DNA of 20,741 nucleotides from a virus (lineage: Duplodnaviria > Heunggongvirae > Uroviricota > Caudoviricetes). Below the pieces are notes generated by a model. The model saw only the letters and a program-made list of their open reading frames with translations, was not told the origin of the DNA and made no database searches. Positions 1,012 through 19,386 of this stretch are shown one piece after another. Position 1 is the stretch's first letter, and each line of letters starts with the position of its first letter. The stretch lies in IMG/VR virus record IMGVR_UViG_2630968533_000002. One strand, given 5' to 3'. A program made the translations under genes and the position numbers.

Positions 1012-1320
1012 GTGAAGGCTGAAAAGTAAGAATTGGCGTTACGAGTTATTCAATTGGATCTGTTTGTAGAGTATTGGCTTCAATGCCGCATTGTAGCTGG
1101 TTTCTTCCTAATGCGATTTTTGATTATGTACACCCTTATGTACACGGTTTTTTCGGGTGCTTTGGTCAAAAGCCATTGTCTACATCGCTCACGATCGAGG
1201 TGTGTAACCCTGTTCAGGCTTGTTGTACTGCGCACGCGTATTGCTCGTGAAATTGATTGTGAGAGGTAAGTTAATCGCTATTTTTAGGAAGTGTATTTAC
1301 ATAGAATGGGGAAACGGACT

Positions 1321-2849: not shown

Positions 2850-3305
2850 ATGGTCTTTGCAATGAGCAAATCTAATCTGATCGCGTTCCGCATCCCATCT
2901 GAATTGCAGGATGAGTTTAATCGGTCTGTTCTCGCTTCTGGAGGAGATAAAACCTCCTGGCTTGTTGATGCGATTCGCATGAAGCTGGGACAGCCGGAAA
3001 AGTCTATTGATTCACGAATGCTTGGGCTGGTGGAGCGCATGGAAAAAGCCGCTGCGTCGCTTATTGCCGGAAAGCCGAATATCCCACCAAAGCCATATAA
3101 CGAAACGGCAGTTATAAAGATCATTGCCGATACCATCCAACAGGGATTTGATAATGGGCGTGTGATAGCTGAACGGATCAATGAAGCAGGCTATCAAACA
3201 AAAGCTGGTAAAGCGTGGGATAAAGATATTTACAGCGCGTGGAAGCGTCAGGGAAACAATGCTGAAAAGTTAAAAGCGGTGATTGATTGTAAGGTCAGCG
3301 TATAA
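2850..3305 (+). CDS. Ribbon-helix-helix (Arc/Mnt/CopG-like) DNA-binding protein with uncharacterised C-terminal domain (151 aa; possible start at 2862)
   Basis: N-terminal LIAFRIPSELQDEF...SWLVDAIRMKL fits a beta-strand plus two-helix RHH pattern; preceded by palindromic elements at 2801-2834 (TATAAC..GTTATA, ATACAG..CTGTAT). Confidence 0.55.
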   Translation: MVFAMSKSNLIAFRIPSELQDEFNRSVLASGGDKTSWLVDAIRMKLGQPEKSIDSRMLGLVERMEKAAASLIAGKPNIPPKPYNETAVIKIIADTIQQGFDNGRVIAERINEAGYQTKAGKAWDKDIYSAWKRQGNNAEKLKAVIDCKVSV

Positions 3306-3384: not shown

Positions 3385-3585
3385 ATGAAAGGCAGAACGC
3401 CACACATTGAACATCAAGCCAACCACTTCTCGGATGTTCGCAATGAGATGATTGCCATTCGCGGTGATATGCACGGAATGGAGCGTCGCCTAGCAGATAA
3501 GATGGACGAGAATCAGAAGTGGATCATCGTCCTGTTGATTTTATCAATTCTTATCCCGCTACTTATCGCATTGGTCACAAAATGA
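3385..3585 (+). CDS. Small C-terminally anchored membrane protein (66 aa)
   Basis: GGTGAGGA Shine-Dalgarno 8 nt upstream of ATG; hydrophilic N-terminus followed by one hydrophobic helix WIIVLLILSILIPLLIALV at the C-terminus. Confidence 0.5.
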   Translation: MKGRTPHIEHQANHFSDVRNEMIAIRGDMHGMERRLADKMDENQKWIIVLLILSILIPLLIALVTK

Positions 3586-3613
3586 ATATCCAATGTGTAT
3601 GCTGTCGATGCTA

Positions 3614-3996
3614 CGCGCGCGTACTTGTCGCAAAATATCAGGCAAAGGCCAGATTCAGAAAGTCGTGATAACCACCAGCACAACATGAGATGTCATGTAA
3701 CGCGATTTATCACACCAGATACATGTGATTGGTGTACCCGCATAAAACATTGTCATAGCGCGTCCTGTGCGCATATACGCCGATAATCAACACATCACCA
3801 CCACTCTGTCTCATGTAGAGAACACTTTTATGGTATCCCCCGCCATCGTGCGCGTACTAGTCGGACGCAGTTGCAAAACTTTTTGCAACTGATACCCCTC
3901 GCGCGCGTACTTGTCTCGAAATTGGTGTTTTGCTGTGGCAGTGATATCAGAAAAATCTTCCTGTTTCACATAAAGCGGATATGCGCGTACTGTAAC
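3614..3996. repeat. Iteron-like array: four copies of GCGCGTACT(N)GT, including a perfect 16-bp direct repeat CGCGCGCGTACTTGTC at 3614-3629 and 3900-3915; perfect palindrome CAGTTGCAAAA-CT-TTTTGCAACTG at 3868-3891
   Basis: Read directly; occupies the intergenic region between the 66-aa gene and the membrane-protein gene. The ORF-track ORF 3595-3786 overlaps it and is probably not coding. Confidence 0.6.
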
Positions 3997-4107
3997 GGCC
4001 CCATCAACGGGGATCGGATTTGAAATCCCGACCCCAAGCTATGTACCAAATGCCATGTCTTGGATATATGATGATTGCCATTCTAAACAACGCTAAAGGG
4101 GGTTGGT

Positions 4108-4722
4108 GTGAGCAGAAAAGATACTAAAGAATTGCTAACTATCTGCATGGTGTACTTTTCAATTTATTTTTGTGCATACATGATAGTCCCAGATGAGTTT
4201 GAACATGGCAGTATTATTTATTCCATAACATTCTATTTTTTAGAGCTAACACCAATTTTGGCTATCCTTTTGGCAATACATATTTATTTTTCCTTAAAAA
4301 AAGAATCGACTAATTGGGAGAAGGTATGGAGAGACAGAGGATTTCTAACATCACCTAAAGATGATGCATATGAGAGTGATTTTTCTGACTTTATAACAAA
4401 CTACTACTCCAGCGAACAATTCAAAAATAGACTGTCTGATGTTTGGGAAACAGCAATGTATTCTATAGGGATTATATTATTGATACTTACTGGTATTGCT
4501 CAATATGTTTTTAACATTGACTTATCATTAAATCCTGAAAATTTAATATCGCCATTGATTTTTGGTGAGATATTGATCTTCTCATTCGGAATTTTCTTGA
4601 GTGTTGTTCTCTGCTCATTATGCAAGCTACTGACTAACAGGTATCCGGGTGAAGCAAGGAGAGCAAGAAAGGCAAATCCATATTATCTTTTATTTCCTAA
4701 TGGAGACAGCAGAGATATCTAA
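4108..4722 (+). CDS. Polytopic inner-membrane protein (204 aa, GTG start), very low GC; candidate superinfection-exclusion or abortive-infection protein
   Basis: AAAGGGGG Shine-Dalgarno 6 nt upstream of GTG; about six hydrophobic helices with a roughly 70-aa charged loop; AT-rich codons (by eye near 30% GC) against a roughly 50% background; convergent with the 701-aa gene. Confidence 0.6.
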   Translation: MSRKDTKELLTICMVYFSIYFCAYMIVPDEFEHGSIIYSITFYFLELTPILAILLAIHIYFSLKKESTNWEKVWRDRGFLTSPKDDAYESDFSDFITNYYSSEQFKNRLSDVWETAMYSIGIILLILTGIAQYVFNIDLSLNPENLISPLIFGEILIFSFGIFLSVVLCSLCKLLTNRYPGEARRARKANPYYLLFPNGDSRDI

Positions 4723-4741: not shown

Positions 4742-6847
4742 TTATTGAGCTTCTTTTTGTGATGCCTGTGCGACTCTGGTGAGCGATTGTGTGACCGTAC
4801 TGATCGCTCTGTCATATGCTGTGCTACCTTTTGGCGTATTTGCCAGACGTAACAAGGCATTTCGTATAACAGGGCTTTCGTATGCCTTCGCTGCTCCGCC
4901 TACGGCACCAGCAGCAGGAACAACAAACGCAGCCGTTTTTAGCATCCCCGCTAATACTGCTGCGTTTATGATGCCACCACCAACTAACAATCCATAAAGC
5001 TGCTGACCATTTAAGTTTTGAACGTTCGCTTTTGCCGCGTGTCTTGTATCGTTGAGGTATTTAATAACGCCGTCCAGTTCCTTTCCATGTACGCCTTTAA
5101 AGAAAGTTGCTGATTGCTTCCTGTTCCGGTGTAACGCATTAATAAACTTTTCAACACTAATATTTCCAGACGGATCAGTCGCCTTATCTACAGCATTCTG
5201 AACTATGGCTGCTCGTGCGTTTTGCCTACCATTGTCATCCAGAAGCCTGTAAAGCTGAGAACGTTCTGATGGGCTTTGGCTAAAAACGAGTTTTGTTACA
5301 TCCTCAGGCGTGGCCTTGCCGCTGGCTATTGCCTTTTGAACGCGCGTTCTTCCCATCATGTCATTGAATTTAGACCATGAGCGATCAACCCTTGCCATAT
5401 TAATGGCTTCGTCTGCTCCAAGATTTTTGGCTACGGCTTTTTTCATATCCGCCGTATATGCCTTGTAGATAATATCGCTGGCTTTCTGGAGCGTATCTTT
5501 ATCAACAGTGTCAGATGACGCCATAAATCTCTTTCGAAGATCGGTTCTGTTTTCCCTCGCCAGACGCAGGTCATTTGGTCCGCTGGTGATATCGTCTTTA
5601 AATTGCTGCAAGACTTTTACCGCGGCTCTATCCTGAGATTTGCCCGGGCGGCTTAACACGGCAATCTGATTGTCGATAGCTTTTACCGTGTTTGAGAGAT
5701 CGACAGGGGTATCCCCCATAGCGTCAATTATGCGGTTATATCGCTTTCCTGCTGCCTCAATGAATTTTTGTTGCCCTTTAGTCGCAGATTCATAAAGCTG
5801 TTTATCAGAAATGCCACCCAGACCATCGCTAAATGTTCTGACTAAATTTTCTCGTGCTTGTTGTTGATTCAGCCGATTCTTACCGGTTCCAAAAAAAGGA
5901 ACTCTTTCGCCTAATGTCTGAGCCTGACTCTGCATAAAGGTTTTATCTTTCAGCATGTCACTGGTCATTAACGGCAGATTTCTTTCCGATGCAAAGTCGA
6001 CAGCAGCCTTTGCTTCAGGCGACATATCACCACGAACAGCCCTCGAAACCGCACTCGCTGTATTTTCCAGCCCCTTACCAATACCACCAATGCCAGCAGA
6101 AATTACCGTTTGTAACGGATCAATACCTTCTCCACCAGCAAGGCTGGTGGCTCCCTGTAGTGCTAAATCTGTAGCTGCTGATTTTCCTATGGCACCAAGC
6201 ACCGTTCCAGCCCTGCCCGCTGGTGTAAACGCCAGCGCATTAGCCAGAAACGATGCCACGTCTTGCGGCGATAAACCCGGCTTGTTCAGAGCATAATCAC
6301 CGGATGGCAGGGAAACGATAGTGTTACCCTTCTCATCCTGCCTTAATTTCGCTCCCATGCTCTGAAGAATCTTTTCCTGAGATGCGTCAGAGCCGAAAAG
6401 TTGAGACCATCGAGCTTTTAGAGCATCCATGCTGAGTGAGGTTAACTCTGGGGCAAGGTCGACATTTTGCAGTCTCTCCATCTCTGGAGTCATTCGGCTT
6501 TCGCCTGTTATAGCATCGCGCATCGCAGCCCCAAGACTGGCTCCCTGTTCTGCTGAACGCTCAAGCCCCTCTCTTTGCTGAGTAGCTAACTTTGCATACC
6601 CTGACGCAAGAGAATTATCAGATGATGTATGTTGAATATTTTGAGTTGCTGATTGGGCTCGGTCTATTTCATTCGTTGATGGTAGTGGATAGGCAGCATA
6701 AAAAGCCTGCTTAGCCTGTGCTACACTTTCTCCGGCTTGCGGGGCAACGACTTCATTGAAGTATTGCTCCTGAGCCTGCGCTTTTTGTTCTGGTGCTAAC
6801 GCCTGATACTGTGGAGAGGCGATAACATCTTTCCATGCTTTAGCCAT
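4742..6847 (-). CDS. 701-aa Ala/Gln/Gly-rich protein with hydrophobic Gly-rich C-terminus; P22 gp16-like ejection (DNA-transfer) protein candidate
   Basis: Long ORF, start overlaps upstream stop; composition and position as last gene of the 153/225/473/701 series; similarity to gp16 inferred from size, order and composition only. Confidence 0.7.
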   Translation of the reverse strand: MAKAWKDVIASPQYQALAPEQKAQAQEQYFNEVVAPQAGESVAQAKQAFYAAYPLPSTNEIDRAQSATQNIQHTSSDNSLASGYAKLATQQREGLERSAEQGASLGAAMRDAITGESRMTPEMERLQNVDLAPELTSLSMDALKARWSQLFGSDASQEKILQSMGAKLRQDEKGNTIVSLPSGDYALNKPGLSPQDVASFLANALAFTPAGRAGTVLGAIGKSAATDLALQGATSLAGGEGIDPLQTVISAGIGGIGKGLENTASAVSRAVRGDMSPEAKAAVDFASERNLPLMTSDMLKDKTFMQSQAQTLGERVPFFGTGKNRLNQQQARENLVRTFSDGLGGISDKQLYESATKGQQKFIEAAGKRYNRIIDAMGDTPVDLSNTVKAIDNQIAVLSRPGKSQDRAAVKVLQQFKDDITSGPNDLRLARENRTDLRKRFMASSDTVDKDTLQKASDIIYKAYTADMKKAVAKNLGADEAINMARVDRSWSKFNDMMGRTRVQKAIASGKATPEDVTKLVFSQSPSERSQLYRLLDDNGRQNARAAIVQNAVDKATDPSGNISVEKFINALHRNRKQSATFFKGVHGKELDGVIKYLNDTRHAAKANVQNLNGQQLYGLLVGGGIINAAVLAGMLKTAAFVVPAAGAVGGAAKAYESPVIRNALLRLANTPKGSTAYDRAISTVTQSLTRVAQASQKEAQ

Positions 6848-8268
6848 TAATCACCCCATAGTGAAGAAAAATTACTGCTGGCTGCTGGCTGTGATACCTG
6901 CTCAGATTGCGGCAATGTCTGCGACGAAGAAGAAGTTCCTCTGTCAACTGCTGAAATAACCCGCAAAGCATCATAAGCTCGACCAGAAGCAGCTTTCAGC
7001 GAATTGAACTGGTTTTCCATCTTCCTACGCTTGGTATCAATGGTTTTTGTGGAATCACCAGGCTGAGGGAAATACATTTGATAATATTTGGACATTTCAG
7101 CTGGTAGGATAGATGCCCCTGTTTCCTGACGGAGTATTGCCATTATTGCGTCATTAGCATTAACAACGTATTGCTGCTCTGTTGGGCTGAGCGTTAAGTT
7201 AGCCAGCGTCCCATTACCCAAAGCATTATTAATGATCGCCACTCGCTGTGGGCTAAGCTGGTCTTTCAGTGTATCTATTGAATCAAGAGCATCCCTAACT
7301 CTGTATGCAAATCCAGCAGCTTTTTTAGCCCCTTCTGGCGACTTTTCCATGATCTTTTGGGCTGTTGGCAAAGCTATTGGACGAAACCCATCTCCAGATA
7401 TTGGCTGGTTTAGTTTTCCCTGCTCTTCACTTCCGTCTGTGTAGTATTTTGTGACAGTGCCATCATCGTTTTCTCTAACACTCATTAATTTTTTGGCGTT
7501 TGTATTAATTCCAGCCGCTGCCGCAAATGCCGCAGCCCCCTCTGGATCCGCCTTTAACATTTGCGCGTACTGATTGTAATTCTGCATTGCGGCTGTTGGT
7601 GCATATGCTGACGTTAACGCATTTGCTCGGCTAATATCCTGCCCTCTCGCCTGAAGTGCTTCTCCAGCCTGATTGCTGCGGATTGTCTCTGCCAACTTGC
7701 CACGCTCAATATCCCGACCTTCCATTCGATCTTTGATATCGAAGTACTTCTCATGACCGAGAGAAAACAGTGCCATACTACCAGCAAGCCGCTGGAATCC
7801 CTGTGGATCATTAACATGCATTTCGGCAACAGACTCAGGAGAAATCCCCAAGCGACGCATTTCATCTTCGTTATCTGCTATGAATTTTCCAAATGCCCCA
7901 GTTCCGAGCGAAGATGCGATTTGAGCACTAGTCGCAAGATGACCAATAGAATTTCTCTGGTCGTCATCAATAAAGCCCATCCCTTTCTGAACGCTTTCAA
8001 ATTCTTCTGGATACTCAGAAATAAGACTGCGCATTTTGTTTCTGTCTCCAGACTCAAAAGCCCCGGCATATGCTTTCTGAAACTCTGCTTTACGCTGTTG
8101 TTGACGTGCCTGCTGATTAATCTCAGCAACGCCTCTTATCCCCTGTAGCGCCATTAAACCTACGTTTGGCTGCTGCTGATACTGCACAGGCTGAGGAACG
8201 GAAGAACGAGGAGCATTATCATTTTGCGGTGCCATGCTAGGCAGCCCGCCAAGTTGCCATGTCGCCAT
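6847..8268 (-). CDS. 473-aa protein; P22 gp20-like ejection protein candidate
   Basis: Long ORF translationally coupled to both neighbours; size close to P22 gp20 (about 471 aa, from memory). Confidence 0.7.
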   Translation of the reverse strand: MATWQLGGLPSMAPQNDNAPRSSVPQPVQYQQQPNVGLMALQGIRGVAEINQQARQQQRKAEFQKAYAGAFESGDRNKMRSLISEYPEEFESVQKGMGFIDDDQRNSIGHLATSAQIASSLGTGAFGKFIADNEDEMRRLGISPESVAEMHVNDPQGFQRLAGSMALFSLGHEKYFDIKDRMEGRDIERGKLAETIRSNQAGEALQARGQDISRANALTSAYAPTAAMQNYNQYAQMLKADPEGAAAFAAAAGINTNAKKLMSVRENDDGTVTKYYTDGSEEQGKLNQPISGDGFRPIALPTAQKIMEKSPEGAKKAAGFAYRVRDALDSIDTLKDQLSPQRVAIINNALGNGTLANLTLSPTEQQYVVNANDAIMAILRQETGASILPAEMSKYYQMYFPQPGDSTKTIDTKRRKMENQFNSLKAASGRAYDALRVISAVDRGTSSSSQTLPQSEQVSQPAASSNFSSLWGD

Positions 8269-8945
8269 TAGAATCCAAGCCCCCCAACAAGACCAATAAG
8301 CCCACCACCAATAGCGCCTGCCGCAGTACCTATTCCAGGAACAACGGAACCAAGTTGAGCACCCGCTAAAGCGCCTGATGCTGCCCCACCAATACCACGC
8401 GCAAGACTGGATGGCTGCTGCGCCTGACCTGCACGAATAGCGCCAAGCCCCTGCAAGAGTTGTCCGGTATTATTGGCGTAGTTTTGCCCTGCCGTTGCCT
8501 GCCCTGATGCCGCATTCATCCCGACATTTAGCAGGTTTCCATAATTTTGCATTTGCCCACTAAGCCAATTGTTATAAAGCATGGGCGCAATGGAAGATAA
8601 CTGGTTACTGGTAGCTGTTGAGCCAAGCCCCCCGGTAGCTTCTGCTGAGACAAGGTTCTGATAACGGGCCTGATCTGCCTGTGTTTTATATAAACCAGAA
8701 CCAAAGAAATCATTCGCGGCTTTATTCTGCCCTTCCAGAGTCATCAGTCCTTGTAGTTGTTGTAAAGCAGGCAATCCGACTTCTGCATACGGCTTGAGAT
8801 TATTCATCACCGTATTCCACTGCTCGCGCTGCAAATCAATTGCCTGCTGCTGGGCCTTCGCCTGAGCTTTAGAGGCACCACCATCACCGCCTTTTTCGTA
8901 TACGGCACGATTGAGATGTTTATGAGCTATATGGGTAATTAACAT
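8268..8945 (-). CDS. 225-aa protein with Gly-rich hydrophobic C-terminal tail; P22 gp7-like ejection protein candidate
   Basis: ORF overlapping neighbours; C-terminus GIGGAASGALAGAQLGSVVPGIGTAAGAIGGGLIGLVGGLGF; size close to P22 gp7 (about 229 aa, from memory). Confidence 0.7.
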   Translation of the reverse strand: MLITHIAHKHLNRAVYEKGGDGGASKAQAKAQQQAIDLQREQWNTVMNNLKPYAEVGLPALQQLQGLMTLEGQNKAANDFFGSGLYKTQADQARYQNLVSAEATGGLGSTATSNQLSSIAPMLYNNWLSGQMQNYGNLLNVGMNAASGQATAGQNYANNTGQLLQGLGAIRAGQAQQPSSLARGIGGAASGALAGAQLGSVVPGIGTAAGAIGGGLIGLVGGLGF

Positions 8946-9400
8946 TCGCTGAATTCCTTATATTGTTGCCGAGTTAACTGATAAAGCGTTACGCCGACGG
9001 GTTTACCACATCTGATATAAGCATCATCAAGGTGACCAACACGGGTAGCGCCAAGCAAACGGATAATTGCCCGTCCGTATTTGGTGGTGTCAGGAACCAT
9101 GGTAATGCTGTTAAGGAATGGTGAGTTTTCGAGAAGCCATTTGCAGAATAATCGATGCCCTTGCAGTGCATATTCACCACGGAATCCGGGGTCGTACACC
9201 GCATGGCATTCAACAATGCTATGCCAGAAGTTACGCACTTCATGAACGCCAGCCAGCACCAATCCTTCGTAGATGCCGAGATATACCGCATCAGGCTTGA
9301 TGTAGTACGTGTGCCCCGGCTCAACAATATTTTCGGTATTGCCAGGATCGTTAAGAAAGGCCTGTAATCGCACAGGGTTATCAATAAATTTTAGTTCCAT
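8939..9400 (-). CDS. 153-aa protein, first large gene of the operon; gp14-like position
   Basis: ORF overlapping the 225-aa gene by 7 bp; function unknown; assignment by position only. Confidence 0.6.
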   Translation of the reverse strand: MELKFIDNPVRLQAFLNDPGNTENIVEPGHTYYIKPDAVYLGIYEGLVLAGVHEVRNFWHSIVECHAVYDPGFRGEYALQGHRLFCKWLLENSPFLNSITMVPDTTKYGRAIIRLLGATRVGHLDDAYIRCGKPVGVTLYQLTRQQYKEFSEC

Positions 9401-10071: not shown

Positions 10072-10175
10072 CTGTACCACCTGTACCACCATGCCACAAA
10101 CCCTTGTGTGGCGCGGCCTACAGGTGGTACAGGTGGGTAAAAATGACCTCTACCCACCTGTACAGACCTGTACCA
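10072..10175. repeat. Iteron cluster B: multiple copies of GGTGGTACAGG / CCTGTACCACC in both orientations
   Basis: Read directly: CTGTACCAC-CTGTACCACC (10072-10090), GGTGGTACAGGTGG (10123-10136), CCACCTGTACAGACCTGTACCA (10154-10175). ORF-track ORFs across this region are probably spurious. Confidence 0.6.
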
Positions 10176-10180
10176 TTTAT

Positions 10181-10918
10181 TTAATTTTTACCCATAGCAG
10201 CACATAATCCCTTTTTTGAAATATTGAAAAATGCGTTCATTCTTCCCGCTGGTTTAACCTTGTAGCCGCTTGCCACCATCGCCGCAATAAATGCTCCGTT
10301 GGGGATATAGTGCGGGTGATCACTGTGCTGGTGGTTTATCTGGTTATATCGCTCCACTTCATGCTTCAACGTGTCAGATGTGGGGTTATCCTGCGGGAAG
10401 CTCTCAATCTGGGCATTACTCATCCCGTTGTCTCTGATCCATCTCAGGCAGCTTTTCGCCGATACGATAAATGACGGGTTATCAAGCGGGTTTTCCCAGT
10501 CCGCATTCCGGTTGTGGAGCGCCAGTCCGTCAAGGTTAAATTGTGGGTATTCAGCGGTAATTACTGTCACTGCGTGGCGGATTTCAGTCTCGTCACAACA
10601 TGGCTCATCTCCCACACCAGCAGGGTAATAATCTGAACCACCGGGACTGATACAGCGTTTACCACTGAAAGGCCATTGCTTCGCCATTTCGGGTGTTGAG
10701 TGATTACCGTCGCTCCGTTCGCGCTGTGCCTCTGTCCACTGGCTGGCATATTCAGTAAATGAAACCCTTTGCCCCTGGCGCATCCAGTGCGCAATCATAA
10801 TTAAAGTGCGTTCCAGACTTTGGATGTCGCCAGCATTCCCGCACTGTGTAGCGAAACTTTTTAATTCTTCGCGCTCCGTTCTGGTCATTCCCTGCGGTAT
10901 GCAATAGTTATTGTTCAT
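10181..10918 (-). CDS. Hypothetical 245-aa protein between the two iteron clusters
   Basis: Long ORF, overlaps the upstream 76-aa ORF; no family recognised. Confidence 0.55.
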   Translation of the reverse strand: MNNNYCIPQGMTRTEREELKSFATQCGNAGDIQSLERTLIMIAHWMRQGQRVSFTEYASQWTEAQRERSDGNHSTPEMAKQWPFSGKRCISPGGSDYYPAGVGDEPCCDETEIRHAVTVITAEYPQFNLDGLALHNRNADWENPLDNPSFIVSAKSCLRWIRDNGMSNAQIESFPQDNPTSDTLKHEVERYNQINHQHSDHPHYIPNGAFIAAMVASGYKVKPAGRMNAFFNISKKGLCAAMGKN

Positions 10919-11138
10919 GTTTTACCTCTCTGATTTCTGCTGCCATATCTGTTGGCTCTATACAGCCGTCACGACTTGCCACGCAGGGGATAATGATTTC
11001 AACGGTATCGCCGTCAATACACATTTCAACATTCGCCCATGCCGCAATGGGTAGCCAGTCTGAACGCCCCTCAAACCGTAGCTGCCAGCCAGAGGAAGAA
11101 GCTAACTGGCGCACTTTGTAAAATGGTGTGCTCATCAT
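10908..11138 (-). CDS. Hypothetical 76-aa protein
   Basis: ORF immediately downstream of iteron cluster A, overlapping the 245-aa gene start; no family recognised. Confidence 0.4.
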   Translation of the reverse strand: MMSTPFYKVRQLASSSGWQLRFEGRSDWLPIAAWANVEMCIDGDTVEIIIPCVASRDGCIEPTDMAAEIREVKHEQ

Positions 11139-11182
11139 TGGTCGTTCCCTCTCAGCCAGCCAGAAGAAATGCGTTTGTTAAT

Positions 11183-11285
11183 GGTATAGGTGGTACAGGT
11201 CTGGTATAGGTAAGATATTGACCTGTACCACTATAACGCATTGTTTTTAATGCTGAATTAGCAAAGTGGTATAGGTGGTACAGGT
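11183..11285. repeat. Iteron cluster A (putative replication origin): perfect 18-bp direct repeat GGTATAGGTGGTACAGGT at 11183-11200 and 11268-11285, with inverted partial copy ACCTGTACCAC at 11221-11231
   Basis: Read directly; lies 30-130 bp beyond the stop of the primase-helicase gene, where PICI/P4-type elements place their iteron origins. Confidence 0.6.
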
Positions 11286-11314
11286 AAAAACGTTCTTCTT
11301 GTAAAAAGACTATA

Positions 11315-13669
11315 TTAAAAAACATCATAACCCCCCATACCGATCAGACGGGCAAACGCAGCCTGTAGAACTCCGACCTCTGGTAGTTCGTAGAACACGC
11401 CATTCCCACGGTCTGGTCTTCCATGCTTCACCAGCCCCATTTGTGCAAGTGACTTACCCAGTAGTGATCTGGCTGCTGGTTCTTTAAGCTTTTCCCCACG
11501 CTCAAGCGACCACGCTACAAATCGACTAACCATATCCTTTGCAAACAAACGGACTTCGCCATTAAACGGAGGTTCATTGATTAGCTCGCCATAAAGAAAC
11601 AATTCAACGCCAGACAGCCCCAGCAAGATTTCTTCACGTAAGGCATCGGTCTGTGGCGCTCGTTGAGGGTCAAAACCTGATAGATCCACCCCTTTAAGAT
11701 GCCAAAGCAACTTTGCGGCACCGCCATCATTAAGCCAACTGTACAGCCGATCAAAATACTCCCGGCTCTGTGCTTTTTCAGGAGATGGCTCAAGCACGAG
11801 ATAGCGGCGCTCTCTTATCCCTGCCTGTAATACCTGTGTGCTGTTACTGGCAAATATCAACCGGGCAAAATTCGGCATTGGTTCAGCATCAATTCCCTTG
11901 CGCTCAAGGTTAAACGTCGGTTCGCTAATAATCGCTTTAAGTCTGTCAGCTTCAGACGGCTTGTGGATCGTCACTTCGTCAGCAAATACCAGTAGCTTGT
12001 TAGCAAGTATTGAATTGAAGCGCCCTGAAATATGTCCCGCCCCGTTAATGTGGGCGGCGTACTGCCCCAGTATTTGCAGCAGCGGTTTAACCGTTGTGCC
12101 TTTCCCTGTGCCCGGGACAGATTTCATTACGATTGCCACGGACGGTTTTTCATCAGGCTTTTGGATAATGTGCGCCATCCACTGGATAAGATATTGGTAT
12201 GCCTCTTCATTCCCGGCACAGACAACCTGCAACAGGTGATTAAGGTATACCGTGCAATCTCCTTCAATTGGTTCCAGTGCCAGCCCCTCATACAGATTAA
12301 AAACATCGTCAGGGCATTTGTCTGGTACTGGATAAAATCCTACGCCTCCTGGCTTGTAGTTCTTCCCACTCCATGACAGCCACGCCGATCCCGCCAGCTT
12401 TCTGGCGACTCTCGGTTTATGATGAAAATAATGCTGAAATTGTGATAAATCCTCGAAAACGTGCGATACACCGCCGGTTTGAGAAGGCTTTAGCGACACC
12501 ACCTTGTGTTTCCCGCCGATGGTGACATGCGTAAACGTCCGGTTGATTTCTTCGAGGACAGCAATTTCATCATCGCTTAACACCTCGCCAGAACTGATCT
12601 CATTCAGCGCCCCGACTGACTGTTTGTGATTTTTCACCTGCGCCCCTTTCCCCCGTGGCTGGTACATCGAATCTTTAAATGCTGCTGTGGCTGCCGCCAG
12701 CCCGTGTTGTTGGTGATAGTCGTTCCAGTCGGCTTTATAGTCAGTCGGTGGCAGAGACACCCAGCCAGCTACGGAAATAGCGGCCCTCTCTGCGGCATCT
12801 TTCCCCGTGTTGATCCCTCCACTTTCGGAGTTTCCTTGCTGGTGATCGTTATCTGCGGCAATGATGATTTGTGCCTGTGGATATGTTCTGCGCATGACTT
12901 CCGCTACTGGCAACAGGTTGCCAGCGTCGATTGCTGCCACTGTCATTGCGTCAGGGCGAATTAAATGGCACGACAGGGCGGTAGCCACCCCCTCAGCAAT
13001 TATGATGCTGTGAGGTCGTTTCTGTGCGTTTATGGCGTGATATGCCCCCCGCTTTGCCGAACCTGTCAGGAGTCTTTTTTCACCATGTGAGGTAATAGTC
13101 TGTGCTGCTGTGACTGCGCCGGATTTATCCACCAGCGCCAGCAATAGAGATCCATCTGGCAACACGGGAAATGTAAAATCACCTACCCCTTTCGCAACCA
13201 GATAATCAGATTTGCTGTTTACAGCCTTTCTGCGCATGTCATCAAACTGACGGGAAAACGTATCCCGTCTTTGTTGTTCATCCTTCTCTGCCCTTTTCAG
13301 GCGCTCCTGTTCGCGTCGCTGGCGCTCGGTTTCCAGTTGTTCCCGTTTCTGGCTGGTGGCTTCTGGTGTTTCTGTTGTCCGGTAATCAATACCCAGAACA
13401 TCAGCGGCAAGCAGCGCCGCCTCTGTTGTGTCGCAGTTATTTACGCGTTTAATTAAATCCAGCCCATCACCAGCGCCGCACTGATTACAGATGAAGCTAC
13501 CGCGCCCGTTGTCATCGAACCGGAATCGATCTTTGCCCCCACATGCAGGGCAGGGAGCATGACGGCGAGGAGAGTCAGGGACATTTATGTTCAGGCAGCC
13601 CAGCACATGAGGCCAGTTGTTTTCAGACGCACTGATAACCTGACGGATAAGATCAATGTTTCGCATCAC
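11315..13669 (-). CDS. P4 alpha / D5-type primase-helicase (784 aa)
   Basis: N-terminal CxxC..CxxC zinc-ribbon (APCPACGG...ICNQCGAGDG), TOPRIM-like AADND motif, C-terminal helicase Walker A (VPGTGKGTT) and Walker B (LLVFADEV). Confidence 0.85.
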   Translation of the reverse strand: MMRNIDLIRQVISASENNWPHVLGCLNINVPDSPRRHAPCPACGGKDRFRFDDNGRGSFICNQCGAGDGLDLIKRVNNCDTTEAALLAADVLGIDYRTTETPEATSQKREQLETERQRREQERLKRAEKDEQQRRDTFSRQFDDMRRKAVNSKSDYLVAKGVGDFTFPVLPDGSLLLALVDKSGAVTAAQTITSHGEKRLLTGSAKRGAYHAINAQKRPHSIIIAEGVATALSCHLIRPDAMTVAAIDAGNLLPVAEVMRRTYPQAQIIIAADNDHQQGNSESGGINTGKDAAERAAISVAGWVSLPPTDYKADWNDYHQQHGLAAATAAFKDSMYQPRGKGAQVKNHKQSVGALNEISSGEVLSDDEIAVLEEINRTFTHVTIGGKHKVVSLKPSQTGGVSHVFEDLSQFQHYFHHKPRVARKLAGSAWLSWSGKNYKPGGVGFYPVPDKCPDDVFNLYEGLALEPIEGDCTVYLNHLLQVVCAGNEEAYQYLIQWMAHIIQKPDEKPSVAIVMKSVPGTGKGTTVKPLLQILGQYAAHINGAGHISGRFNSILANKLLVFADEVTIHKPSEADRLKAIISEPTFNLERKGIDAEPMPNFARLIFASNSTQVLQAGIRERRYLVLEPSPEKAQSREYFDRLYSWLNDGGAAKLLWHLKGVDLSGFDPQRAPQTDALREEILLGLSGVELFLYGELINEPPFNGEVRLFAKDMVSRFVAWSLERGEKLKEPAARSLLGKSLAQMGLVKHGRPDRGNGVFYELPEVGVLQAAFARLIGMGGYDVF

Positions 13670-18420: not shown

Positions 18421-19386
18421 CTACCCCTTACCGTTGGCGGCAGCACGTAAGTGTCTCAAAATCACATCTTCATTTGTGATTGCTAACGGTGGAATTTCGT
18501 CTTTATGAGCCACTATGCAATCCCGCCACTTCTCAGGGCTTATTTCTTTCTTTTTGCCACGGCATTCATCAGGATACTTTGACAAAAGATATATTGCTGA
18601 TTTGAAAAGTTTTTCCCTGTTTTCAGCATGTCTCTCGGCATTATGGTTGCTATTTTTTATTTCAGGTATTAGTTCCTGTTCTACCGCCATTTCGTATCGT
18701 TTTTTGCTCTTAGCTGCGTCAAAACTTCCATTAACCTTTGCGTCGTGAAGGTATTCTAAATCAGCCTTTGTTATATAAATGTTTTTATCTGACAGGCTAC
18801 TCAGGTGAATCTGGGAACTTTGCATTTTGAATTTATATAGATCACAATCAAATGTTGCTTCAAGTCGCACATATGGCTCTCCACATTCTTGTGAATGATA
18901 ATGTCGTTTTGTACTACCGCGTACACGCAACAATCCACATGCAATTGATTTTCTTACAATAAAAGAGTTTTTGCCAATTTGTTCAAAAACATTTTTATTG
19001 TCTCTGTCTTCAACTGTCAGTGGTTTATGTGCATAAAATAGCTCATAAGCACCGCTTTCAGATGCTGGGATATAAACTTCGTTGCTTGCGCTGGTAATAA
19101 GAAAAGGAAATGTAAACCTTACTTCTTCTGGGTACATAAGTAATAAATCAGTTATAAAATCAGCATCTTTTTTGAAGTGGATGGTGGCATCAGCTTCAAT
19201 GAAATCAAGAAAGTCAGCATAGACATAAAAGTCTATATGTAGTCTATCTTTCCAATGCCATATATCATCAATTTCACAATTTAATAATTTTGATGCTCGC
19301 TCTATCGTGCAGTAGTCCAAAGGTGGAATACCTGATTCCTGCCATAAATTTCTATGCACCGCAGTTGTTTCATGAGAGTCGTTCAT
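18421..19386 (-). CDS. Orphan AT-rich 321-aa protein of unknown function (cargo gene between int and alpA)
   Basis: Long ORF with AAAGGTGA Shine-Dalgarno-like sequence; GC clearly below neighbours (by eye about 37%); own terminator; no recognisable domain. Confidence 0.65.
   Translation of the reverse strand: MNDSHETTAVHRNLWQESGIPPLDYCTIERASKLLNCEIDDIWHWKDRLHIDFYVYADFLDFIEADATIHFKKDADFITDLLLMYPEEVRFTFPFLITSASNEVYIPASESGAYELFYAHKPLTVEDRDNKNVFEQIGKNSFIVRKSIACGLLRVRGSTKRHYHSQECGEPYVRLEATFDCDLYKFKMQSSQIHLSSLSDKNIYITKADLEYLHDAKVNGSFDAAKSKKRYEMAVEQELIPEIKNSNHNAERHAENREKLFKSAIYLLSKYPDECRGKKKEISPEKWRDCIVAHKDEIPPLAITNEDVILRHLRAAANGKG

Follow-up and report, generated by a model that had tools for sequence, protein, structure and literature searches.

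EcCIMP1, a phage-inducible chromosomal island (PICI) of Escherichia coli, excises only on induction of the P22-like phage Kapi1, and Kapi1 transduces it specifically (PMC11773190). Neither terminase nor capsid genes are present in EcCIMP1, whose authors cannot say how it is packaged (PMC11773190); one other paper was found to mention the island. Here, we report the analysis of IMG/VR virus record IMGVR_UViG_2630968533_000002, a stretch of 20,741 nucleotides of Caudoviricetes DNA (all of which we call the window), and of an array of short repeats in a conserved noncoding module at positions 3605 to 4040. From its sequence, the window appears to be an EcCIMP1-like PICI of E. coli, and its repeat array is, on balance, probably a multicopy packaging (pac) signal for the small terminase (TerS) of the helper phage, derived from the terS gene.

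With a tRNA-gene integrase, an AlpA-type regulator, a primase, a length of about 20 kb, and no capsid or lysis genes, the window has the sequence features by which PICIs are recognized, and the same island is found at tRNA-Thr beside proA in E. coli chromosomes. It is laid out as an integrase, Ant-like and Ash-like regulators, a P4-type primase, and P22-type ejection genes (gp14, gp7, gp20, and gp16); no terminase was found among its proteins in protein-family searches. EcCIMP1 (Pick et al. 2025, PMC11773190) is alike in its tRNA-Thr integrase, Ant-like and Ash-like regulators, primase, gp14/7/20/16 genes, perC, and module. The window differs from EcCIMP1 in its primase type, in its cargo (RHH, 66-amino-acid [aa] membrane, SieA-like, and HslV-like proteins), and in lacking alpA_1 and one perfect repeat copy (copy 0, described below). 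EcCIMP1 carries the module with three perfect 16-mers (copies 0, 1, and 3), copy 4, and the inverted repeat, its units being at L007 9554, 11308, 11596, and 11679; PMC11773190 gives no description of this array.

Results

The original prediction for this locus was an iteron array with a perfect 24-bp palindrome. Its perfect 16-bp direct repeat, CGCGCGCGTACTTGTC, was verified in the window sequence (exact at 3614 to 3629 and 3900 to 3915), as were the two degenerate copies that it listed. The repeat unit exceeds 16 nt (about 20 to 28 nt), its consensus on the window minus strand is AGTTTCGnGAC(A/C)AGTACGCG(CGCG), and all units found in the window share one strand. Copy 1 (3612 to 3639, minus strand), which reads GATATTTTGCGACAAGTACGCGCGCGTA and includes a 12-bp palindrome (TACGCGCGCGTA), and copy 3 (3898 to 3925, minus strand), which reads CCAATTTCGAGACAAGTACGCGCGCGAG, hold the perfect 16-mers. 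Copy 2 (3847 to 3862, minus strand) is the degenerate CGTGCGCGTACTAGTC, with 2 mismatches to the 16-mer, and copy 4 (about 3980 to 3996, minus strand), ATGCGCGTACTGTAAC, keeps only the core GCGCGTACT at 3983 to 3991. Five copies of this core occur in the 20.7-kb window, all on the plus strand, against 0.05 expected by chance; four lie within 3617 to 3991 (375 bp), the fifth is at 7563 to 7571, and the copy-to-copy spacing of the array is irregular (233, 53, and 80 bp). When units from other islands alone (L198, L200, and L207) were used to train a weight matrix, with a chance expectation of 0.05 hits for the window, copy 1 scored 22.5 bits and copy 3, the top-scoring site of the window, 25.9 bits. 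Copy 1 is invariant across 13 aligned population copies, and copy 4 is retained in nearly all E. coli copies of the module.

Because EcCIMP1 is transduced specifically by Kapi1 and has no terminase of its own, the island needs a cis site that the helper recognizes. P22-like phages keep their pac site inside terS. For these two reasons, the motif was compared with Kapi1. The only core match in the Kapi1 genome lies inside terS (18704 to 19132), where the noncoding strand reads CGCGTACTTGTCGCGAAAAT; the counterpart in copy 1 is CGCGTACTTGTCGC-AAAAT, and that in copy 3 is CGCGTACTTGTCTCGAAATT. The coding strand at the site encodes ..EDFRDKYAKA.. of TerS, which in Kapi1 is of the Sf6 type (PF20901, E = 8e-45). 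Gene 1 of Sf6 has the site once, at nt 172 to 183 (the motif segment of Kapi1 and Sf6 terS is GACAAGTACGCG), and the whole repeat unit corresponds to nt ~157 to 194 of Sf6-type terS. Copy 1 has an exact 14-mer in common with Kapi1 terS, and copy 3 agrees with it at 17 of 18 positions. With terS as a target fixed in advance and local alignment restricted to it, copies 0, 1, and 3 each scored above all 1,000 shuffles (z about 7); in the same shuffle test, copy 2 was marginal (P = 0.03), and copy 4 had no significant match beyond an 8-mer. When the complete genomes of Kapi1 and Sf6 were scanned with the weight matrix, each gave exactly one site, the one in terS (27.8 bits).

The motif-bearing segment was found only in P22-like phages of E. 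coli and Shigella (Sf6, Sf101, HK620, Kapi1, HF4s, Gally, and Huey) and always in terS, and the core is invariant in 56 distinct Sf6-type terS sequences. Sf6-type terS is present in 500 of 5,426 E. coli genomes, including MP1, the strain of EcCIMP1. In other phages, Sf6-family terS reads GAGTTTCGCGACCAGTACGCGCGCGC (GAG TTT CGC GAC CAG TAC GCG CGC GCn, encoding E F R D Q Y A R A); the CGCGCG tail of the island units agrees with these genes, whereas the terS genes of Sf6 and Kapi1 have no CGCG tail. The same 20-mer in islands lies in open frames of about 32 aa, and neither an extended TerS-like open reading frame (ORF) nor a TerS family signal was found in the module. A decayed full-length terS in the module was rejected because the similarity to Kapi1 TerS detected by tblastn was limited to ~12 aa around the motif.

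More divergent islands were recovered with a small ORF between the primase and gp14-like genes as an anchor, which yielded 19 islands. The genes of four of these (L200, L201, L206, and L207) are 65 to 76% identical to those of the window, their GC content is higher, and none of their DNA can be aligned with the module; L200, the one of the four that was tested, has no counterpart in any of the 5,426 E. coli genomes. All four carry AGTACGCG cores (3 to 8 each, versus about 0.5 expected), every one on the strand of the gp14 to gp16 genes, as in the phage. Two noncoding units follow gene 16 in three of the four (L200, L206, and L207), and 2 to 3 further units lie at the start of the Ash-like regulator ORF in all four. 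The unit common to islands is ggAGTTTcGnGAC(a/c)AGTACGCGCgcG, its terS counterpart is GAGGATTTTCGCGACAAGTACGCGAAGGC, and one L198 copy agrees with terS nt 157 to 194 at 33 of 37 positions, with a 2-nt gap that breaks the frame. A search of related elements for the same motifs, proposed with the original prediction as a check, found the 16-mer and the inverted repeat in EcCIMP1 and the core of the unit in the four divergent islands. As expected of pac sites, the units of both the window and the divergent islands are asymmetric and consistently oriented, and a terminase-less carrier, EcCIMP1, is transduced by a helper with the TerS in question (Kapi1, PF20901).

A covariation test gave no second motif type; the distant islands L208 and L211, with other injection-protein sets, have no multicopy repeat. 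True covariation would be seen if the helpers of the L200, L206, and L207 islands had a terS reading GACCAGTACGCGCG. When one genome per species was scanned with the PerC-like protein, no match was obtained, and a scan for the two-copy DNA pattern returned chance matches only, in high-GC metagenome-assembled genomes. L208, L209, and L211 (IMG/VR) have relatives of the anchor ORF followed by injection or internal-virion proteins of other phages (for example, a transglycosylase-bearing tape-measure-like protein and virion proteins of 830 to 920 aa), which suggests a wider group of satellites that carry DNA-delivery proteins of their helpers.

Outside the module, a weak unit (16.2 bits) lies in noncoding DNA at 1229 to 1256 (minus strand), beyond the perC and HslV-like genes. 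In EcCIMP1 and strain F8, an extra perfect 16-mer, copy 0, is found ~50 bp past the end of perC (EcCIMP1, L007 9554 to 9569; L001 18946 to 18961); copies 0 and 1 have ~45 nt in common, and copy 0 has one more CG repeat. The window has no perfect copy 0, and its unit at 1229 to 1256 may be the counterpart. The fifth core of the window (7563 to 7571, unit on the minus strand) falls within the coding sequence of the gp20-like ejection protein, in which it specifies ..QYAQ.., and may be there only through coding constraint; a core is found at the same gp20-gene position in divergent islands (L206 12002 and L207 11993).

The predicted palindrome (3868 to 3891) is a perfect 11-nt inverted repeat, CAGTTGCAAAA-CT-TTTTGCAACTG, with arms at 3868 to 3878 and 3881 to 3891; its 2-nt center, CT, is not palindromic, so that a perfect 24-bp palindrome overstates it. 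A single DNA strand of this sequence forms a stable hairpin (-9.8 kcal/mol, z = -4.7). The center differs among strains (CT, AA, or TT), the left arm begins with T in some of them, and one arm weakly resembles the 5' half of the unit (9 to 11 of 15 positions). A search of viral contigs for the inverted repeat found only the same islands and two chance matches in coding sequence. Strains W284 and 2014C-3338 have lost it by deletion; it is dispensable for persistence in these two strains.

The module (3605 to 4040, minus strand; ~440 bp) and the DNA up to 4107 were found at 95 to 99% identity in 544 of 5,426 complete E. coli genomes (~10%), whereas near and distant searches of the phage collection gave no match to the module, which is in no sequenced phage. 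The absence of a convincing gene, as first described, was borne out: the ORFs of the module are short and differ between variants, which have none in common, and six-frame ORF translations of the module and its variants had no Pfam or PHROGs match. Rfam at a permissive threshold gave nothing in the region and only a spurious microRNA match outside it, and simple promoter and terminator scans of the module found none, including no sigma-70-like promoter. The GC content of 3501 to 4000 is 0.458, near the window mean; the low-GC interval at 4001 to 4500 is the sie-like gene.

Both flanks of the module vary among strains. On the left are an RHH gene and a 66-aa gene, two hypothetical genes, an Abi gene, or alpA_1, and on the right are a SieA-like 204-aa protein, unrelated membrane proteins of 130 to 141 aa, or a gene on the opposite strand. 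In the window, genes for the 66-aa membrane protein, an RHH-like protein, a PerC-family regulator, an HslV-like protein, and a DinD/Ant-like protein lie left of the array. The gene on the right (4108 to 4722, plus strand) encodes a SieA-like inner-membrane protein (weak match to PHROG 7745) and is variable cargo, replaced in other strains by the unrelated 130- to 141-aa membrane proteins. Between-strain homology on this side extends to a Shine-Dalgarno sequence and GTG common to the different membrane-protein genes, and then ends. Because it ends exactly there, the conserved 5' region (4041 to 4107, plus strand) is probably the promoter and 5' end of the downstream gene and, in some variants, its N-terminal codons. 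No more than 85 bp from the sieA start codon suffices for PsieA of P22, and about 430 bp of the module are unaccounted for by the downstream promoter and 5' region. The module is not simply the promoter region of the 4108 gene, because the neighboring gene in EcCIMP1 is on the other strand and PsieA needs no more than 85 bp.

The common 70-bp upstream sequence and GTG precede differing genes in the window (4041 to 4113), L002 (9465 to 9854), L003 (9383 to 9808), and L004 (6141 to 6560). An in-frame upstream ATG is present in L004 and L003, and a 2-nt indel (GGGGG versus GGGAGGG) sets whether that ATG is in frame. Different membrane genes behind a fixed expression signal look like cassette swapping. 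The module lies between two identical 14-nt direct repeats, GATGATTGCCATTC (3447 to 3460, within the 66-aa gene, and 4070 to 4083, just upstream of the ribosome-binding site of the sie-like gene); a repeat of this length is not expected by chance in 1 kb and could be a scar left by recombination. In EcCIMP1-type variants, ~530 bp of conserved DNA lie between alpA_1 and the module (L004 5463 to 6000; L007 10760 to 11300), with no annotation, consistent ORF, or family match; the window does not have this stretch.

The SieA-like gene adjoins a full P22-type ejection set (gp14, gp7, gp20, and gp16) at 4742 to 9400. SieA of P22 blocks injection via gp16 and gp20 (PMC10883804), and the island may for this reason both keep P22-like phages out and equip its own particles with compatible ejection proteins. 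In the metagenomic contig L147 (IMGVR_UViG_3300045988_004969, contig 11377 to 25380), along with L051, the genes from terS to gene 7 are Kapi1-like, and the region from genes 20 and 16 through a membrane gene and the module to alpA_1 is 98 to 99% island-like; L147 is either a phage-island recombinant across the common ejection genes or an assembly chimera.

Discussion

The repeat unit can be read as a noncoding relic of a ~20- to 38-nt stretch of Sf6-family terS that encodes ..E-F-R-D-(K/Q)-Y-A-R... On this model, a P22-like helper with an Sf6-type TerS (Kapi1, Sf6, HK620, or relatives) would be induced, and its TerS ring would bind the units on replicated island DNA as it binds its own terS site. 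TerS would then recruit the large terminase (TerL), which would cut nearby, and headful packaging would run unidirectionally, to the left in window coordinates and away from gene 16. With several copies in the same orientation, initiation could be more frequent, or the DNA could be wrapped around the TerS ring with its multiple helix-turn-helix domains. We infer TerS binding, cleavage, and an effect of the units on transduction from comparison of sequences. A cis packaging signal is the simplest explanation of the array because only one segment of terS is kept, in several noncoding copies of the same orientation, and it is favored because the islands depend on a helper whose terS holds the same sequence. 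Among the roles first suggested for the array, a packaging-related site and a binding site for a helper-phage factor are accordingly the favored ones, as putative assignments, because the unit reproduces a stretch of the small-terminase gene of the helper.

Several observations weigh against a packaging role. In a comparison of the whole module with the whole Kapi1 genome, a 14-nt exact match is not rare (P = 0.12), and a second module 14-mer matches the Kapi1 coat gene, presumably by chance; on account of that P value, we rely on the terS-restricted and weight-matrix tests. The unit covers codons ~51 to 63 of Sf6 gene 1, at or just past the C-terminal edge of the DNA-binding domain, and the Sf6 pac site probably lies in the part of gene 1 encoding that domain. 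Copy 2 is decaying (it varies among strains at 3851, 3853/3854, 3857, and 3859), and natural deletions, with end-points exactly at the repeats, have taken one or two copies together with the inverted repeat (53 bp between copies 2 and 3 in W284; 286 bp between copies 1 and 3 in 2014C-3338). L190 has substitutions in both copies 1 and 3, the module is too uniform within E. coli to reveal selection (population alignment of 13 copies), and the cluster of units at the regulator ORF start in divergent islands would also suit an operator. The reported transduction frequency of EcCIMP1 is very low (PMC11773190).

Binding by a regulator is the most serious alternative because the early cluster sits at the Ash-like gene. 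The units would then be operator or enhancer sites for a DNA-binding protein other than TerS (Ash-like, AlpA, PerC, or a helper regulator), and the terS match would be a regulatory target in the helper or the product of common ancestry without common function. The divergent islands, with their 2 to 3 units at the 5' end of the Ash-like ORF, are consistent with this, as is the E. coli array, which lies between divergent cargo genes near perC and alpA_1, and direct repeats with a palindrome are typical of regulator binding. We nonetheless consider it unlikely: the neighboring regulators vary (RHH in the window and F8, alpA_1 in MP1, and an Abi protein in W284), the units are irregularly spaced in a module in which no sigma-70-like promoter was detected, and both the identity of the unit to terS and the single site there in the helper genome would be left unexplained. 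Binding by the RHH protein, as the original prediction had it, is disfavored because the RHH-like gene (2850 to 3305) is limited to some carriers; it is present in the window and F8 and absent from EcCIMP1 (MP1), ABU 83972, and W284, all of which have the module. The cognate repressor gene that accompanies operators of the Arc/Mnt (RHH) type therefore does not travel with these sites.

The units might instead be functionless debris of a decayed ancestral Sf6-family terS, in which a slippage-prone GC-rich core was duplicated through errors of replication and has persisted by chance or hitchhiking. They are clearly derived from terS, copy 2 is decaying, some strains have lost copies, and the (CG)n tract varies in length, as in the extra CG of copy 0. 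Even so, debris strikes us as a rather improbable account of a single ~20- to 38-nt segment of terS in 4 to 8 copies, always on the same strand, that survives in islands of different species, diverged beyond the point at which noncoding DNA can be aligned; neutral debris should not outlast its surroundings.

It is highly improbable that the units are origin iterons for the primase-helicase or dedicated sites for recombination of cargo cassettes, although they are direct repeats in noncoding DNA, the strain deletions end exactly at them, and a variable segment lies between copies 0 and 1. The iteron label is disfavored because the same module accompanies two unrelated primases (a DUF5906 type in the window and W284 and a TOPRIM-DUF927 type in F8, ABU 83972, and MP1) and because a separate array, GGTGGTA(C/T)AGGT, lies directly beside the primase gene. 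Iterons adjoin and covary with their initiator, whereas the module is >7 kb from the primase. A dedicated recombination site, another of the roles first proposed, does not follow from the deletions, since any pair of perfect 16-bp direct repeats would give such end-points through slippage or recombination, for which no special enzyme is needed, and the module is not accompanied by a recombinase. Five direct copies of TGGTA(T/C)AGGT lie at 11182 to 11288, just downstream of the primase gene (11315 to 13669, minus strand), and inverted copies (CCACCTGTACCA) lie at 10072 to 10175, so that the two arrays flank the genes at 10181 to 11138. Their motif, GGTGGTAYAGGT, is distinct from the repeats at 3605 to 4040, and this primase-side array is more likely to be the replication origin than is the array in the module.

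An effect at the RNA level, in which transcripts toward the sie-like gene would be complementary to helper terS mRNA over 14 to 20 nt and would repress or tune terS, is equally hard to credit: the plus strand of the window, the sense strand of the flanking plus-strand genes, does carry the units antisense to terS, the stable hairpin would form a stem-loop, and C-to-T at the first base of its left arm keeps a G-U pair, but no promoter, terminator, or Rfam family was detected, the neighboring gene in EcCIMP1 is on the other strand, the target would be in the middle of an ORF, and the units of divergent islands are in the sense orientation of the main operon, so that an antisense role would be possible in the E. 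coli arrangement only.

If the array is a packaging signal, it may say something about the terminase itself. We suggest, tentatively and with more doubt than conviction, that the ~20-nt sequence (A/G)GTTTCGnGAC(A/C)AGTACGCG is the pac recognition core of the whole Sf6 TerS family, multiplied by satellites. The core would then be held constant by the most conserved codons of the family (..FRDxYA..), and the extracted terS segment would be a portable packaging handle, usable across species with any helper of this TerS type. This would give a sequence-level reason why terS genes move easily between phages. A packaging role for the array would by itself narrow down what is recognized by a terminase that is well studied but has been elusive in biochemical work, and it would mean that a satellite has assembled its packaging signal from a helper-gene fragment in repeated copies. 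About one in ten E. coli genomes has an EcCIMP1-type island, and the cargo of these islands includes virulence regulators and anti-phage functions. Their packaging has so far been unexplained, and a ~20-nt cis element and an Sf6-type TerS can now be named as directly testable candidates.

A satellite that carries the packaging signal of its helper is a known strategy; the form of it proposed here is new. P4 carries cos for P2, SaPIbov5 carries cos, and EcCICFT073 carries cos together with Rpp (PMC9026076; reference 63 of PMC11773190). The window island resembles these satellites in that a cis site for the helper terminase is carried by an element with no terminase of its own (or with a modifier). 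Their signals are cohesive-end cos sites, whereas the helper here is a headful packager and the candidate site is a multicopy fragment of the terS gene. EcCICFT073 retargets TerS by means of a protein of its own; in the window island, no Rpp-like gene was identified.

The pac sites of P22-like phages (in gene 3 of P22 and gene 1 of Sf6) are, like the island units, short asymmetric sites for the small terminase, and the island unit is nearly identical to nt ~165 to 190 of terS in Sf6, Kapi1, and HK620, pac being inside terS in these phages; the TerS of P22 itself is of another type. The phage has one copy in coding sequence, whereas the islands have 4 to 8 noncoding copies over 0.4 to 2.5 kb, with a CGCG tail. 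Composite terminase-binding repeats are found in lambda cosB (R1 to R3), in the pacL and pacR boxes of SPP1, and in the pac hexamers of P1. These are similar to the island array in having several short terminase-binding repeats over 100 to 400 bp; they differ from it in lying in the genome of the phage itself, in not being copies of a coding segment, and in their rules of spacing and orientation.

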